This document shows positions 3,529 to 28,465 of a stretch of 29,596 nucleotides of DNA, piece after piece. The notes beneath the pieces were generated by a model, which had not been told where the DNA came from, did no database searches, and saw only the letters and a program-made list of their open reading frames with translations. The DNA is taken from UHGV virus genome UHGV-0100673. One strand, 5' to 3'. Numbering within the stretch: position 1 is the first letter of the stretch; every line of letters starts with the position of its first letter. The position numbers and the translations under genes are program-made. Source of the stretch: a virus.

Positions 3529-5418
3529 TTAGTTAGTTGAAGAGTGGCCGCATAGTTTGGCATTTAGTCCGACATTACATTCGGACAAAGCCACGCCGCT
3601 GATGTTGATGATTCGAACGTACGCCTGCGTTTTCGCGCTGTTGATATAAACCTGAACAGCCACAACAGGCATTGACCCTGCGTATCCTACTGGCGTCACG
3701 TCCAGTGTGTAGTTCGTCCAGTCAGCAATAGAAATGCCAAACAGTGTCGTCACATCTTTTTCAGAATACCCGCCGGCACTTATTGGCCCCCACGCGACAG
3801 CTGAGGATGTGGTATGGAATTTCACACCACCGTCGAGGTTTACCCTGTTTTTTGCTTTTCCGTTGCCCGTACCCAAATACAGCCGCCTGGAATATGTGTC
3901 ACCAAAGTCATCAACACCCCACGGCGTTACAGATGCTGAAACCTGATGAATATATGTCCAGCTACCGTTCTGCGTAGTTTTTCTGCGTACTATAGGGGCA
4001 TTCCCTGAAGCAAAAATAGAATAGGTTGTAGCATCTGTAATGCTAAGCCCCGTTACTGAATCAAAAATTCTGACACCACAATTCCACTTATCGACTCCGT
4101 TACGTAGACGCTGAACGCGAATGCCATCAGCCCCAGATGATGTGGATAGATCTCCAACCCCAGCGATGTAACAGCCAACATAAGTACCGTTACCCACGAT
4201 GCCATCAATATTACAATCAATCTCAACCCCGTAAACCTCGTCTCCGGGTTGCAGATTATGGGCGTTAGTTAACAGGTTCATTGCCCACAATTTCTGCCGT
4301 TCACAGTTAAACGATTCTATCGCAGCCATCAGAGCGACGAACGGCTCATAATTCGGCCCGCTGGACAGCGTGTCATGGACAGCCATTTCAACAGCCATAG
4401 TCTGGTGCTTTACCGACGTTCCATCGATATTCACAGCGCTATATTGTTTTGTTCTGAACGTAGTGCCTGATATTTTGTGGTTCGGGTGCGTTGTTAGTCT
4501 CGGCAGAAAATTGGTATTCGTGACTGTAATTCCCGGGGAAAAAATAACAGTACACGGCTCCGAACGATCAAATTCTATCGCACTGGTTAGAGTGACATTG
4601 GTATCAAAAGTGATGTTACTGGACTCATCAAAAGCAGCCTGCACAGCATCCTGATCGGACAGCCCCTGATTTTTGTAATAACTGATCGCAACAAGAGGTT
4701 TATTACCCAACTTTGCGACCAGGGAAGTCCCTTCTTCTGATGCCAACTCAATCATCACATCAGCCGCAGAACCTGACTCAGGCAATACCGCTATCGGATT
4801 ACCGGTATCGTTGAATGCCAGTATTTTTTTCCTGCGACCTGAGATGCCAGGAAGCATTCCTACTTCTGACTCAGGAACCCTCAGCGTCCGCTTAAAGTTA
4901 TTGTCTGAATGAGAAATGGCGCCATGATAGAGATTGTCAGCATACCCCTTCGTGGCCGCATCCTGCGCCTGTGACGGGTCACGCAAGTTACGAATGCGGT
5001 TGTTGAGTGCGTCGTAATAGTTAGCGATGAACGACGGCTTGCGCAGCGCCAGGCGGAGAAAGCTGAAACACTGCTGGATAAGCATGGTCAACTTGTCGAA
5101 CGCATCCTCATGCACCTCTGCGAAAAATTTACCCTGGTTACGGAGGTCAGTATCCTGGGTAACTGGCAGGTCACGCGAGATAGAGATTTGCCATCCGTTG
5201 GCCAGCGGTGACATCAGCACTACATTCCCACCAGAATAAGTACCAGCCCCAGTAACTGAGTAATCGGTATCCAGAGTCAGCACCGTAATATTTTCGTTAA
5301 GGTCAGCGACCTGGACGGTGAGATCTGACTTCTTGAAGATGCGGAATGTATACGGAAATGATGTCGTAACGCCGTTACCTGTGTATTCGTTGTGGTCAAC
5401 TTCGGTTGAGACCGTCAT
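3529..5418 (-). CDS. Tailspike / tail fibre protein
   Basis: 629 aa; N-terminal pattern EYTGNGVTTSFPYTF...VLTLDTDY resembles the conserved particle-binding domain of T7 gp17-type fibres and podovirus tailspikes; remainder is Gly/Thr/Asn/Ser-rich, consistent with a beta-helix receptor-binding body. Confidence 0.75.
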   Translation of the reverse strand: MTVSTEVDHNEYTGNGVTTSFPYTFRIFKKSDLTVQVADLNENITVLTLDTDYSVTGAGTYSGGNVVLMSPLANGWQISISRDLPVTQDTDLRNQGKFFAEVHEDAFDKLTMLIQQCFSFLRLALRKPSFIANYYDALNNRIRNLRDPSQAQDAATKGYADNLYHGAISHSDNNFKRTLRVPESEVGMLPGISGRRKKILAFNDTGNPIAVLPESGSAADVMIELASEEGTSLVAKLGNKPLVAISYYKNQGLSDQDAVQAAFDESSNITFDTNVTLTSAIEFDRSEPCTVIFSPGITVTNTNFLPRLTTHPNHKISGTTFRTKQYSAVNIDGTSVKHQTMAVEMAVHDTLSSGPNYEPFVALMAAIESFNCERQKLWAMNLLTNAHNLQPGDEVYGVEIDCNIDGIVGNGTYVGCYIAGVGDLSTSSGADGIRVQRLRNGVDKWNCGVRIFDSVTGLSITDATTYSIFASGNAPIVRRKTTQNGSWTYIHQVSASVTPWGVDDFGDTYSRRLYLGTGNGKAKNRVNLDGGVKFHTTSSAVAWGPISAGGYSEKDVTTLFGISIADWTNYTLDVTPVGYAGSMPVVAVQVYINSAKTQAYVRIINISGVALSECNVGLNAKLCGHSSTN

Positions 5419-5521
5419 GTTAAATCTCCAGATAGTCGCAGCACCCGTTGCGCCGCATATCCGGTTATTTTATTACCTGAAAAACCACATATGGATAGAT
5501 AGACTGTGAATACGAACAGAT

Positions 5522-5538
5522 ATTACCTTTCAGGTAAT
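5522..5538. promoter_or_regulatory. Palindromic operator-like site ATTACC-TTTCA-GGTAAT
   Basis: Perfect 6-bp inverted arms with 5-bp spacer, read directly; same core as four other sites in the window. Confidence 0.5.
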
Positions 5539-5574
5539 TTGCAAAACGTGCTGGATAGCAAACAAATTATTTGA

Positions 5575-5594
5575 TACTGTATAAATATACAGTT
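5575..5594. promoter_or_regulatory. LexA (SOS) box
   Basis: TACTGTATAAATATACAGTT contains CTGT-N8-ACAG with an AT-rich spacer, a very close match to the LexA consensus, about 20 nt upstream of the ATG at 5614. Confidence 0.75.
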
Positions 5595-5613
5595 ATTGCA
5601 TGGAGAAGATAAG

Positions 5614-5871
5614 ATGCAGCAGTATCACTATCCACTGGAAGACGGATTTACCGAAAGGATTCACACGCCGGGAGGCGTCAGGTCACTGGTGGAGGGATCG
5701 CACTTGATGAAATTACTCCGGGATCTCGATAAGGATGGATTTAATGTCGATGGCCCACTTGCCGAACTGACTGCACTGATTAACTACGTCACCAGCTCAC
5801 AGATGTCTATGCAGGATCTGCAAACACATCTCGACTATTGTGCCGAACAATTACGAAAACAAACCAGATAA
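5614..5871 (+). CDS. Small SOS-controlled antirepressor-like protein (homologous to the C-terminal domain of the adjacent BRO-N protein)
   Basis: ATG 5614 with SD GGAG 6 nt upstream (the ORF track's 5596 start is TTG). GVRSLVEGSHLMKLLRDLDKDGFNVDGPLAELTALINYV...DLQTHLDY aligns by eye with SGVLGLTENSLLMNLLNQLQEDGHDVSGAAAELTTMFCYI...DIQTHAEY at the C-terminus of the 6187..6882 product. Confidence 0.65.
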   Translation: MQQYHYPLEDGFTERIHTPGGVRSLVEGSHLMKLLRDLDKDGFNVDGPLAELTALINYVTSSQMSMQDLQTHLDYCAEQLRKQTR

Positions 5872-5902
5872 GGTTTGCAATTACCAAATGGAGTGCTTAT
5901 AT

Positions 5903-5919
5903 TTACCTTTGCGGTAAAT
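5903..5919. promoter_or_regulatory. Palindromic operator-like site variant TTTACC-TTTGC-GGTAAA
   Basis: Same TTACC-N5-GGTAA core as the other four sites. Confidence 0.4.
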
Positions 5920-6009
5920 TTACATCGCACTCCTCTTGTGCCATAGTAATCGGGCACTGGCAAAATCCAGTGCCGGGATTGGCGTCCCGGATTACTAAAA
6001 GGTGCATTC

Positions 6010-6029
6010 ACCGCGCAAGCGGTTTTTTT
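6010..6029 (+). terminator. Short intrinsic terminator-like hairpin
   Basis: ACCGC-GCAA-GCGGT stem-loop followed by a 7-T run; downstream of the small gene and of a structured element at 5945..5996. Confidence 0.4.
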
Positions 6030-6186
6030 ATACGTATAGCACGGCCACATTCGTATTATGGTGGGCTGTGTGGGGGCACCGAAAGGTGCGCCGGGTCCTT
6101 TTAGCCGGTTACGCCAACCCTGCACAGCTCACCACCAACCGATTGGCGTCGGTAGTGGTGATTAACCAGACTAAAAGGTAACCACT

Positions 6187-6882
6187 ATGACAGCTACAAA
6201 AAGCACGTCCATTTTTTCTTTCGAATCCCAAGCCGATATACGAGTAATCGTCATTAATGGTGAGCCATGGTTTATCGCTTCAGATGTTTGTCGGGCTATA
6301 GGCATAGCAAACCATCGAGATGCTGTTCGAAAACTTGATGATGATGAGAAGGGCGTCGCTTCAACCGACACCCCTGGCGGTGAGCAAGAATCGATCATCA
6401 TCTCCGAGTCAGGCCTCTACACACTGATCCTCCGCTGCCGCGACGCAGTGACACCAGGCACTATCCCCTACCGCTTTCGTAAATGGGTTACAGGTGAGGT
6501 TCTTCCTCAGATCCGCTGCACCGGAAGTTACATTAAAAACTCGCTCCCGCAGGAAGAACGCATAAAGATGGTTGCCGACCAGGTAGCCAACGCCACAGCA
6601 TCAGCAGTGATGCAGGCGATGAAGATAGAGAACAAAACCTACAGTGCCCCACTGAAGCCCGGCTACCGCAGCCTGATTCATTCGCCGTCTGGTGTTCTCG
6701 GCCTGACGGAGAACTCACTGCTGATGAATCTGCTGAACCAGTTACAGGAAGACGGGCACGACGTATCGGGCGCGGCGGCGGAGCTGACCACCATGTTCTG
6801 CTACATCGTCGGTGTGAGCAAATGCCTGCGTGATATCCAGACGCACGCGGAGTACATCAACGACAAAGCAGGGTTCTTCTGA
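6187..6882 (+). CDS. BRO-N domain phage antirepressor
   Basis: N-terminal region ...IRVIVINGEPWFIASDVCRAIGI...ESGLYTLILRC...FRKWVTGEVLPQIR matches the BRO-N domain pattern; C-terminal about 60 aa homologous to the small upstream protein. Confidence 0.75.
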   Translation: MTATKSTSIFSFESQADIRVIVINGEPWFIASDVCRAIGIANHRDAVRKLDDDEKGVASTDTPGGEQESIIISESGLYTLILRCRDAVTPGTIPYRFRKWVTGEVLPQIRCTGSYIKNSLPQEERIKMVADQVANATASAVMQAMKIENKTYSAPLKPGYRSLIHSPSGVLGLTENSLLMNLLNQLQEDGHDVSGAAAELTTMFCYIVGVSKCLRDIQTHAEYINDKAGFF

Positions 6883-6953
6883 CGGGCGGCGGCACAGGGA
6901 TGTGCCTTTAAATAATTCTGTACAGATTGCAGACTGGGGGTGAATAGCGTACT

Positions 6954-6970
6954 ATTACCTTAAAGGTAAA
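6954..6970. promoter_or_regulatory. Palindromic operator-like site ATTACC-TTAAA-GGTAAA
   Basis: TTACC-N5-GGTAA core about 45 nt upstream of the ATG at 7012. Confidence 0.45.
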
Positions 6971-7011
6971 CCTGTTTTTATTTTATACCTGTAACTTACC
7001 GGAGATTAAAG

Positions 7012-7338
7012 ATGACAAAACTTGGATTCGTGATGAGAGGTCCGGTAAGAAGCGGAACTCATGCAAAGCGTAGCAAGAGTCGTATTTTTACTGGTAAGGT
7101 TGTAGCACGTAAATCAGCTATTGGCTCGTTCCATAGTGAAAATGCGGCATTGCGCCATATTTTTATCAGCACAAAGCCAAGAGCATCCGCTGATGTGCAT
7201 ACAATGACTATTCCTATCACAAAGAATATAAAGCGGATAAAAAAGCTCTCATCTGCAGAATCAAAAGAGATATCTTTCCGCCAGCTTAACTCATTAGAAA
7301 CGCATATGAAGGAAGAGGAATTCGATGTTTTTGAGTGA
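7012..7338 (+). CDS. Hypothetical basic protein, first gene of a two-gene overlapping module (candidate antitoxin/partner)
   Basis: SD GGAG 7 nt upstream of ATG; 108 aa, Lys/Arg-rich with acidic C-terminal tail EEEFDVFE; 3' end overlaps the next gene by 14 nt. Confidence 0.5.
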   Translation: MTKLGFVMRGPVRSGTHAKRSKSRIFTGKVVARKSAIGSFHSENAALRHIFISTKPRASADVHTMTIPITKNIKRIKKLSSAESKEISFRQLNSLETHMKEEEFDVFE

Positions 7339-7837
7339 GTATAGCGGGAAGGTTATACCTACTGGTGAGTTTAAAACTGATGACTTTCTGATTTCGCTAA
7401 AAGATGCTTTTAAACAACACTGGCGTCATGGTCATCATCCTGATCTGGGAAAAGATACTCTTTTTGAAAGACCAGACGAAGTATTAGGTTTCCATCTCAG
7501 AAAGGTTCATGTCAATATTGGTGAATATGCATCATATTCATACTCATGTACTGAACAGTGTTGGGATGAGTGGTCATATGGATTGATTGATGAACAAGGA
7601 AATTACAGGCCAAAACCAACCAGTAACGCATATCTCATATATGCAGTCAATGAAATAAGAGATGCAGCCTTACTAGCTTATTGGGACCCGCCCGCACACA
7701 CCAAAGCTAACGCAAAAGTTTGGATGGATTCCGTATTGAATTTCACAAAATTATTTCATGAACGAACGAATACAGCTCCACTTAGTAGAAATGTTTATCC
7801 GTGGGATTATTCGTACAAATCCAAAAAGCCTGCATAG
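7325..7837 (+). CDS. Candidate YafO-family toxin-like protein (tentative)
   Basis: Start ATG 7325 lies inside the upstream gene with SD AGGAAGAGGA ahead of it. Blocks LGKDTLFE...HLRKVHV and AYLIYAVNEIRDAALLAYWDPPAH resemble, from memory, the conserved FGRDALYD...VAHIHL and HLVYCQG...AWLLIAILKPEPH blocks of E. coli YafO. No search was run. Confidence 0.45.
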   Translation: MFLSEYSGKVIPTGEFKTDDFLISLKDAFKQHWRHGHHPDLGKDTLFERPDEVLGFHLRKVHVNIGEYASYSYSCTEQCWDEWSYGLIDEQGNYRPKPTSNAYLIYAVNEIRDAALLAYWDPPAHTKANAKVWMDSVLNFTKLFHERTNTAPLSRNVYPWDYSYKSKKPA

Positions 7838-25334: not shown

Positions 25335-26225
25335 ATGCTTGACTTCATCCGTGACATTTACTCCTCTTTCCGCCAAGCATCTCTTGAGCGGGTGAAAAGC
25401 CCGTTCCTTGGGGCATTTGTTTTTTCCTGGCTTTGCTTTAATTGGCAGATGTTAGCAATTCTATTTTTTAGTTCTAAGGATATTGAAAAGCGCCTTGCTA
25501 TTATTAATGGCTCTTTCGGCATCGTCAGCTTTTTAATTGCGCCAATATGCACTACAGCATTGATAGTTATCCTTTTACCGCAAATTAATAAATTGATTAC
25601 AATAATACAAGATAAACCTAACTCAGACACAATTGAAATGAGCCTTGCATCTAAAATAAAGATCGCCGAACTGCAGCAACTATTAGCAGAAAATGAAGCA
25701 AGAAAGAAACTTGCTGATAAAAAAGAAGAACGCTTCATTGAAGAGAATATTATTTCAATAAAAAAAGACCATGAAAAAGCAATAGATAACCTTAAAGACA
25801 AAGAAAGCAAAATCTCAAATCTCACGGACACAATAACTGAACTTCAGAGCAAACTGGTTAAAGCTGAGGCCACTCTCAAAGTTGAACAGGAGTCAAGATC
25901 CCAAGTGCAGAATGAATTGATTATTGAAAAAGAGAACAAGCGGAAATTAGAAGACAACATTCTGCACCTTAATTTAAGTTTAAAAAAAAACCAATCAGAA
26001 TTGGCCATTGCAAAAGAAGCCTATGATAATACCTTGATGGCTTATAATGAACTTAACACAACATTAAAAAAAGCAGAAAGCTCAATAATAAACTTCAATG
26101 CTAACTTTCCTTTTTTAACTGACATAAATAACAGCACCCCAAATACATACTTAAAAATAAATAAAAATGCATGGGATCATTTAGTTAGTTTAAATTTAAG
26201 TCTAAAGGAGAAAATACAAAAATAA
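25335..26225 (+). CDS. Membrane-anchored coiled-coil protein, AT-rich accessory (moron) gene of unknown function
   Basis: 296 aa; two N-terminal hydrophobic helices (FLGAFVFSWLCFNWQMLAILFF and IVSFLIAPICTTALIVILLP) then about 200 aa of Lys/Glu/Leu/Asn-rich heptad-like sequence; codons dominated by A/T with frequent ATA and some AGA; opposite strand to the flanking terminase and portal genes. Confidence 0.65.
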   Translation: MLDFIRDIYSSFRQASLERVKSPFLGAFVFSWLCFNWQMLAILFFSSKDIEKRLAIINGSFGIVSFLIAPICTTALIVILLPQINKLITIIQDKPNSDTIEMSLASKIKIAELQQLLAENEARKKLADKKEERFIEENIISIKKDHEKAIDNLKDKESKISNLTDTITELQSKLVKAEATLKVEQESRSQVQNELIIEKENKRKLEDNILHLNLSLKKNQSELAIAKEAYDNTLMAYNELNTTLKKAESSIINFNANFPFLTDINNSTPNTYLKINKNAWDHLVSLNLSLKEKIQK

Positions 26226-28347: not shown

Positions 28348-28465
28348 AACCACCGTGGTAATAGTTACCGTTGTGGTAATAGTACCATGCAAAATAAAGC
28401 CGCCATAGTTGGCGGCAGTATTCAAAACCCGTCAAATTCATCATGCATAATCTACTCGTGACATG

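Follow-up and report, generated by a model that had tools for sequence, protein, structure and literature searches.

Why should a small gene behind a near-consensus LexA box and a larger gene encoding a related domain stand side by side next to the tail genes of a phage, and what controls each of them? The question is raised by the locus at positions 5,575–6,882 of a 29,596-nt stretch of virus genome UHGV-0100673; this whole stretch is called the window below. We consider it likely that an epsilon15/phiV10-like temperate podophage has its induction module here, with two antirepressors that are built on one repressor-binding domain and are each separately controlled: the small one, Ant1, would answer to LexA, and the larger one, a BRO-N fusion that we call Ant2, to an antisense RNA and to the phage's own repressor, Rep. 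Its similarities assign the window to an E. coli phage or prophage of the Uetakevirus (epsilon15/phiV10-like) group, of which it covers the late/structural region. Its region 5420–7010 is 95–98% identical to phiV10, TL-2011b, vB_EcoP_ZX5 (ZX5) and related phages, the locus itself being 95.6% identical to that of phiV10 and 98.5% identical to that of ZX5, and the remainder of the window carries terminase, portal, capsid, injection-protein, tail-fibre and lysis genes. A preliminary description of this DNA had placed the locus far from any immunity region and next to the tail genes, and this is correct: a tail-fibre gene (3529–5418, minus strand) is the divergent neighbour of ant1, the 29,596-nt window contains no immunity gene, rep lying outside it, and in phiV10 the repressor gene is found about 11.5 kb from the locus.

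The smaller gene, ant1 (5614–5871, plus strand; Shine-Dalgarno GGAG at 5602–5605), encodes an 85-aa protein (ORF85) that we identify, from PDB, tblastn and phrog matches, as an orthologue of the small antirepressor Ant of Salmonella phage SPC32H. In a phmmer search the one PDB sequence matched was chain E of 5d50, the "Anti-repressor protein" of the SPC32H Rep-Ant complex, which aligns with residues 2–84 of ORF85 at 88% identity over 83 aa (E=4e-47). A tblastn search again gives 88% identity, to the gene that the records of the Salmonella phages SPC32H and SPC32N call ant, and the protein matches phrog_450 with E=9e-48. On every point that can be checked in sequences, ant1 belongs to the SPC32H Ant family. 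As papers citing the SPC32H work summarize it, SPC32H Rep forms a tetramer, which is broken up by Ant, itself a tetramer that binds two Rep dimers.

The LexA box upstream of ant1, TACTGTATAAATATACAGTT, occupies positions 5575–5594 (not assigned to a strand), has the core CTGT-ATAAATAT-ACAG at 5577–5592, and agrees with the consensus TACTGT(AT)4ACAGTA at 18 of its 20 positions. Scored with a position weight matrix (PWM) built from 23 E. coli LexA sites, it reaches 27.5 bits, compared with a maximum of 26.7 bits among the training sites; the next best 20-mer in the window scores 11.7 bits, and the top of 200 shuffles 21.2 bits. The preliminary description had reported a near-consensus box about 20 nt upstream of the 85-aa open reading frame (ORF) and had proposed such scoring; the box proves to be the sole strong site in the window, with 19 nt between its end and the ATG (5614). 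It is kept in nine phages of Escherichia, Salmonella, Enterobacter and Klebsiella, although the flanks diverge; in the Klebsiella phages one half-site is weakened, reading ATGT instead of CTGT. In additional E. coli contigs each locus has a single strict copy of the box, which lies about 21 nt upstream of the small (85-aa) gene. A natural variant also bears on the site. Over the 209-nt upstream region, SPC32H and SPC32N differ solely by a C>A change in the ACAG half-site of the box orthologous to that of the window. On SOS induction SPC32H Rep reportedly stays uncleaved, Ant being repressed by LexA, and a point mutation in the LexA box is said to make Ant constitutive and SPC32N lytic; the C>A difference fits this account.

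A conserved block, TGCTGGATAG (5549–5558, plus strand), which is nearly invariant across the aligned relatives, provides a candidate -35 element for ant1. The candidate promoter would consist of TGGATA, a spacer of 17 nt, and TACTGT within the LexA box, so that promoter and box overlap. A second CTGT-N8-ACAG (CTGTGAATACGAACAG, 5504–5519) lies 73 nt upstream of the real box; it scores 10.7 bits, which is the level of the shuffles, is absent from phiV10 and SPC32H, and is probably fortuitous.

The repressor of this phage group is known from phiV10. Its Rep (gp40) shares 42% identity with SPC32H Rep and matches chain A of the same complex (5d50_A, E=4e-42); it contains helix-turn-helix (HTH) domains only, and an S24 peptidase domain was not found in it. 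The repressor sequence of ZX5 is the same as that of phiV10 (PMC9782041). Because ORF85 is a near-orthologue of SPC32H Ant, the box upstream of it is orthologous too, and the repressor is of a type without S24 peptidase domain, the earlier proposal that a LexA-controlled antirepressor drives induction without repressor cleavage gains support. This core mechanism, from LexA through a small Ant to a non-cleavable Rep, is already published for a close orthologue.

The larger gene, ant2 (6187–6882, plus strand), encodes a putative 231-aa antirepressor with a BRO-N domain at residues 17–107 (6235–6507) and an Ant-like domain at residues 150–226 (6634–6864). The former matches Pfam Bro-N (PF02498) with 76.6 bits against a cut-off of 25.6 (E=2e-21). 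The latter matches 5d50_E with E=1e-13, spanning residues 3–79 of the 86 residues of SPC32H Ant, and the protein matches phrog_450 and phrog_1760. The preliminary description had noted a BRO-N gene 300 bp downstream of the small ORF and an alignment of the small protein with the C-terminal part, about 60 residues, of the large one, to be checked by pairwise alignment. Both statements hold: the genes are 315 nt apart, and residues 2–75 of ORF85 align in BLASTP, without gaps, with residues 150–223 of Ant2 (74 residues, 42% identity, E=7e-16). This identifies the C-terminal domain of the BRO-N protein as a true paralogue of Ant1, and 18 invariant columns are common to the small Ants and the BRO-N C-terminal domains. 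For a near-identical protein, ORF4 of ZX5, overexpression lowered lysogens from 1e9 to 1e6 (about 1000-fold) and repressor mRNA by 75% (PMC9782041); LexA and the small gene go unmentioned in that paper.

Two side observations concern the shared domain. The small Ants of Klebsiella phages (L009/L010, 1595–1852) contain DGHDVSGAAAE, identical to the BRO-N C-terminal domains, where the small Ants of E. coli and Salmonella phages have DGFNVDGPLAE; this suggests recombination or exchange between the small Ant and BRO-N paralogues. The phiV10 record (L005, 19551–20230, gp23 and gp22) gives 194 aa to the BRO-N gene and lists a 29-aa ORF separately after it, in DNA that is 95.6% identical to the window, and a frameshift may truncate the Ant-like domain in this reference genome.

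The spacer between the two genes, noted earlier as "300 bp", is recognizable as a riboregulator of the P1 immI/Gifsy-1 type, which the preliminary description overlooked. A promoter scan places the promoter of the isrK-C4-ant2 operon at 5919–5947 on the plus strand (TTTACA, 17 nt, TGnCATAGT), with a predicted start near 5954; its -35 and extended -10 are invariant in five phages. It is followed by an isrK RNA (RF01394; 5954–6029, plus strand; 77.6 bits in Rfam against a gathering score of 50), which is closed by a strong intrinsic terminator at 6010–6029 according to a terminator scan, and by a C4 antisense RNA (RF01695; 6054–6139, plus strand; 79.2 bits against a gathering score of 45). The family RF03163 (c4-a1b1) scores below threshold in the window and above threshold in Gifsy-1 isrK. 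A 35-aa leader ORF (MVGCVGAPKG...; 6058–6165, plus strand), whose AUG lies inside C4, is in position and sequence a homologue of Gifsy-1 orf45. Its stop is 21 nt before the ant2 ATG, and in Tyrion and the Klebsiella phages the ORF has just 15 aa.

All pairing elements of the C4 class can be located on the plus strand. The decoy sites within isrK are a1 (UUGGCGU, 5979–5985, in a loop) and b1 (CUAAAAGG, 5995–6002); the antisense elements of C4 are b' (CCUUUUAG, 6097–6104, in a hairpin loop) and a' (ACGCCAA, 6111–6117); and the target sites in the ant2 leader are a2 (UUGGCGU, 6143–6149) and b2 (CUAAAAGG, 6171–6178). The complementarity is perfect over 7–8 nt, b' being the exact complement of b1 and b2, and a' that of a1 and a2. 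The b2 element is the Shine-Dalgarno of ant2, whose ATG (6187) follows 8 nt after it. In six loci (the window, phiV10, Tyrion, Kp4865-1, ST512-KPC3phi13.3 and Gifsy-1) we find three variants of a' (ACGCCAA, AGACCAA and GUCUCAA) and three of b' (CCUUUUAG, CCUUUGUAG and CGGUGAU). The a2 and b2 sites change to match a' and b' in all six, as does a1, and b1 matches in four of the six. The pairing of a' and b' with their targets is supported because these matching changes covary across phages, and the feature that is conserved is the predicted direct occlusion of the ant2 Shine-Dalgarno by C4.

The cassette also carries what appears to be an operator for Rep. The palindrome TTACC-N5-GGTAA occurs seven times in the window, compared with 0.47 expected. 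In SPC32H it forms two triplets flanking rep, it flanks rep in phiV10 too, and in the GenBank record of epsilon15 a copy upstream of gp19 is annotated as a repressor binding site; it was not found in Gifsy-1. Three copies, none assigned to a strand, are designated O1 to O3. O1 (TTACCTTTCAGGTAA, 5523–5537) lies between the tail-fibre gene and ant1 and is invariant in nine phages. O2 (TTACCTTTGCGGTAA, 5903–5917) abuts the -35 of the isrK promoter. O3 (TTACCTTAAAGGTAA, 6955–6969) lies upstream of two cargo genes for proteins of 108 and 170 aa and has equivalents in ZX5, L014 and L016. The distance from the start of O2 to position 1 of isrK is exactly 51 nt in the window, and equally so in each of the eight loci with the cassette that were checked for both (L001, L002, L006, L010, L011, L014, L016 and L017), and it holds despite diverged flanks or a cassette inverted relative to ant1. 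An operator at constant distance before isrK therefore argues that the cassette is wired to the phage's own repressor. Further copies are found at 24674–24688, 25288–25302 and 28365–28379; in the window and in relatives (L003 and L005, genome-wide) such palindromes precede several transcription units, near terminase, portal, tail-fibre and cargo genes. These dispersed operators suggest that Rep directly represses late and accessory operons. The scattered palindromes are comparable to the dispersed C1 operators of P1.

Some features around O2 concern the connection between the two genes. A second promoter-like site (TTGCAA at 5875, TATATT at 5903) would start transcription inside O2. A compound hairpin at 5890–5933 (plus strand) consists of GGAGUGC...GCACUCC around the O2 palindrome, followed by UCUUGUG; the 101-nt stretch 5860–5960 folds with z=-4.0, and in phiV10 the hairpin, read from the alignment, is a perfect one of 18 bp. 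It may be a weak terminator of ant1 transcripts or a mere reflection of the operator palindrome. Since just this weak hairpin stands in between, ant1 transcripts may run into isrK in the window, which would couple the SOS signal directly to the anti-antisense RNA. As a general requirement, read-through from the ant1 promoter into isrK is ruled out by the Klebsiella-type loci L017–L019, because their cassette is convergent to ant1 and yet has kept its own operator, isrK and C4.

These elements can be assembled into a mechanism with two arms. In the first, ant1 would be transcribed from a promoter overlapping the LexA box, DNA damage would remove LexA, and Ant1 would be made; by homology with SPC32H Ant, its target would be Rep, the non-cleavable HTH repressor, whose DNA-binding tetramer it would bind and take apart, and the prophage would be induced. 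This route is known for the orthologue, and we infer that it operates here as well. The second arm is drawn wholly from anatomy, covariation and precedent. Its operon would be read from a promoter whose -35 abuts a Rep operator, first through isrK and the terminator of isrK, then through C4 and a short leader ORF to ant2. In a lysogen, Rep would hold the isrK promoter down, and C4 would block translation of any ant2 message because b2 is the ant2 Shine-Dalgarno, in the manner of c4 in the immI operon of P1. Where Rep has been removed, or is absent as in a fresh infection, the operon would be transcribed; most transcripts would end at the isrK terminator and yield IsrK, whereas read-through transcripts would carry C4 and ant2. 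The a1/b1 decoys of IsrK could relieve the C4 block, as in Gifsy-1, where IsrK relieves the block on the antirepressor in the isrK-orf45-anrP system (PMC4825925). Further parts of this scheme that we infer are the occupation of these sites by LexA and Rep in this phage, the interaction of Ant2 with the same Rep, and the direction in which the RNAs act.

The role of Ant2 may be that of an induction latch, of tuning the lysis-lysogeny decision on infection, or of targeting other Rep types. The two arms might be coupled, and we offer this tentatively, as a possibility with a good deal less than an even chance of being right: Ant1, once released from LexA control, would take Rep off its operators, the isrK promoter would be derepressed, and Ant2 would keep Rep off after the SOS response has decayed. 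In such a latch, accumulating IsrK, with its a1/b1 decoy, would titrate C4 or remodel the leader, so that Ant2 is translated. If true, this would be a positive-feedback switch made of protein plus RNA that renders induction irreversible.

Several points weigh against the two-antirepressor scheme as a whole. For LexA control of SPC32H ant the sequence evidence is the single-nucleotide difference described above, and a consensus scan gave no strong sigma-70 promoter at the LexA box. Since rep lies outside the window, the cognate repressor is taken from the near-identical phages phiV10 and ZX5. O2 lies upstream of the -35 and not over the start site, which is unusual for simple occlusion. The length of the leader ORF is not conserved, and because it is shortened in Tyrion and the Klebsiella phages, translational coupling of the orf45 type may not apply generally here. 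With just 42% identity between Ant1 and Ant2, the larger protein may recognise another repressor, or oligomerisation may be the main function of the domain that they share. An AlphaFold2 model of Ant2, built on an alignment of 23 sequences, has a mean pLDDT of 50.6, too poor to test the fold.

The first of the alternatives raised by the divergence of the two domains is that Ant2 is an anti-immunity or trans-acting factor directed against a different repressor, such as the Rep of a heteroimmune Uetakevirus or the repressor of a co-resident prophage, rather than a second inactivator of the phage's own Rep. A divergent Ant-like domain would give another specificity, as in the cross-acting antirepressors of the Gifsy and Fels phages, and the 42% identity between Ant1 and the C-terminal domain of Ant2 leaves room for this; several Rep specificities exist, because the Reps of SPC32H and phiV10 are just 42% identical. 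Trans-acting antirepressors are documented (PMC3121763), the annotators of phiV10 named the protein "anti-immunity", and the isrK-C4-ant2 cassette is optional, being absent from epsilon15, SPC32H, BUCT554 and BUCT711, which have ant1 alone. However, the near-identical ZX5 protein, when overexpressed, changed the lysogeny of ZX5 itself and its own repressor transcript (PMC9782041), the operator for the phage's own Rep stands at a constant place in the cassette, and every place examined has it in a Uetakevirus-type prophage that carries ant1 too. We therefore regard a foreign target for Ant2 as unlikely, though it retains appreciable weight.

Another alternative explanation is that the shared domain is mainly an oligomerisation module and that the BRO-N protein is a DNA-binding regulator or a host-takeover factor, in which case its homology with Ant1 would be uninformative about repressor binding. 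Ant is described as a tetramer in papers that cite the SPC32H work; the biochemical role of BRO-N is not established, the authors of the ZX5 study considering such proteins as possibly DNA-binding, and the ZX5 evidence comes from GST-fusion overexpression only (PMC9782041). Against this, nearly the whole Ant chain (residues 3–79 of 86) aligns with Ant2 and not a mere subdomain, the 18 invariant columns run through small Ants and BRO-N C-terminal domains alike, and the PHROG families of this architecture are annotated as anti-repressors. In P1, a C4-type module precedes an antirepressor gene. In Gifsy-1 the C4/isrK modules precede antirepressor genes as well, as established by experiment (PMC4825925). 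An oligomerisation module without a part in repressor binding thus appears quite improbable, and antirepressor activity is the preferred reading for Ant2. Finally, that the LexA-like palindrome is fortuitous or bound by another factor, with ORF85 outside SOS control in this phage, is scarcely credible: a clear sigma-70 consensus promoter was not detected at the box and the Rep operator 38 nt upstream could be the real control, but the score exceeds those of all training sites and all 200 shuffles, the site is conserved while its flanks diverge, and the natural variant SPC32N departs from SPC32H in exactly this box.

The locus is widespread. The region 5420–7010 is held nearly full-length by 242 of 5426 complete E. 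coli genomes, and Ant2-type proteins are frequent in Enterobacteriaceae (4656 matches). At every place examined, the Ant2-type gene occupies the same slot of a Uetakevirus-type prophage and is accompanied by an 85/86-aa gene, isrK and C4. The small gene is labelled "hypothetical" in most records, and an annotation of isrK and C4 is absent from all Uetakevirus records that we opened; the present analysis corrects the annotation of all three in Uetakevirus records.

Other genes share the slot or the operators. Behind O3 follows an overlapping pair of plus-strand genes, 7012–7338 and 7325–7837, for proteins of 108 aa and 170 aa (phrog_5933 and phrog_1651). The 170-aa protein has a sub-threshold match to the YafO toxin (E=9.5e-4), and PADLOC gave nothing significant for the cargo genes; the pair may be toxin-antitoxin or defence cargo. 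NCBIfam returned nothing for these genes, ORF85, Ant2 or the leader ORFs. In the Klebsiella-type loci L017–L019 a pair of genes of similar size, for 120-aa and 170-aa proteins, stands directly downstream of the small ant gene. In one E. coli relative (L014, 7677–9407) the slot contains, behind ant1 and isrK-C4-ant2, also a P22-type immI module with the sar antisense RNA (RF00262), a P22_AR_N antirepressor and an Arc-domain protein, so that three antirepressor systems are found side by side. Between the portal and terminase operons of the window, and on the strand opposite to them, lie a tRNA-Arg(TCT) gene (25011–25087, plus strand) and a gene for a 296-aa protein (25335–26225, plus strand, phrog_13369), each flanked by a Rep-operator palindrome.

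What is new in this locus is, modestly, the combination: an Ant under LexA control has as its neighbour a BRO-N fusion of the same domain that would be gated by an antisense RNA and controlled through a Rep operator. No account of one locus in which LexA and an antisense RNA control paralogous antirepressor domains turned up in the searchable literature. Since characterised precedents exist for every component, the discovery is an incremental one, and the locus offers a compact natural system for studying how SOS, master-repressor and antisense-RNA inputs combine in the lysis-lysogeny decision.

The RNA part has a precedent in the immI operon of P1 and P7 (c4-icd-ant1/2), analysed in the work of Schuster and Citron. 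There the antisense RNA is processed from the transcript that it controls; its a' and b' loops pair with a1/b1 upstream and a2/b2 downstream, with b2 covering a ribosome-binding site, and the operon, which codes for an antirepressor, also answers to the master repressor of the phage, with operators at dispersed places in the genome. The window shares the layout of a'/b', a1/b1 and a2/b2 and an antirepressor operon that would be under both antisense RNA and master repressor. In P1, however, b2 lies over the ribosome-binding site of icd and ant is affected indirectly, whereas here the antirepressor gene has b2 as its own Shine-Dalgarno, and P1 is not known to have a LexA-controlled paralogue next door. 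With the isrK-orf45-anrP system of Gifsy-1 the window has the following in common: an isrK and a C4-type RNA (STnc1160) score above the Rfam thresholds and stand in the same order upstream of the antirepressor gene, a', a1 and a2 are identical (ACGCCAA/UUGGCGU), and the leader ORF is homologous to orf45. In Gifsy-1, unlike here with its 21-nt gap, the orf45 stop overlaps the anrP start (ATGA). BLASTP finds no similarity between Ant2 and Gifsy-1 AnrP; by these comparisons the RNA module is of the c4/isrK class and its protein cargo is unrelated to AnrP.

The protein part follows a logic known from Tum of 186, AntC of N15 and GfoA/GftA/GfhA of the Gifsy phages, in which a small LexA-repressed protein, encoded outside the immunity region, inactivates a non-cleavable repressor (PMC3121763). 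In Gifsy-1, by contrast, the LexA-controlled antirepressor sits elsewhere, after dinI (PMC3121763). ORF85 gave no alignment with a candidate GfoA, the 73-aa ORF that follows the dinI homologue of Gifsy-1 and whose identity we take from the same source (PMC3121763), and Ant1 and the Gifsy-type GfoA appear to belong to different protein families. The closest system is Ant/Rep of SPC32H (PDB 5D4Z, 5D50). Its Ant is 88% identical to Ant1, its ant gene is likewise divergent from a tail-spike gene and adjoins injection-protein genes, and the LexA box and the upstream Rep operator are shared. The repressor of the phiV10 group is of the same family (HTH, non-cleavable), with just 42% identity to the Rep of SPC32H. 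SPC32H and epsilon15 have the small ant alone, followed by a terminator, whereas the window adds the isrK-C4-BRO-N::Ant-domain cassette and cargo genes. The SPC32H-type route from LexA through a small Ant to a non-cleavable Rep would thus be the standard switch of phiV10-like prophages, to which many of them add a second antirepressor of the same domain behind a riboregulator of the P1/Gifsy type.

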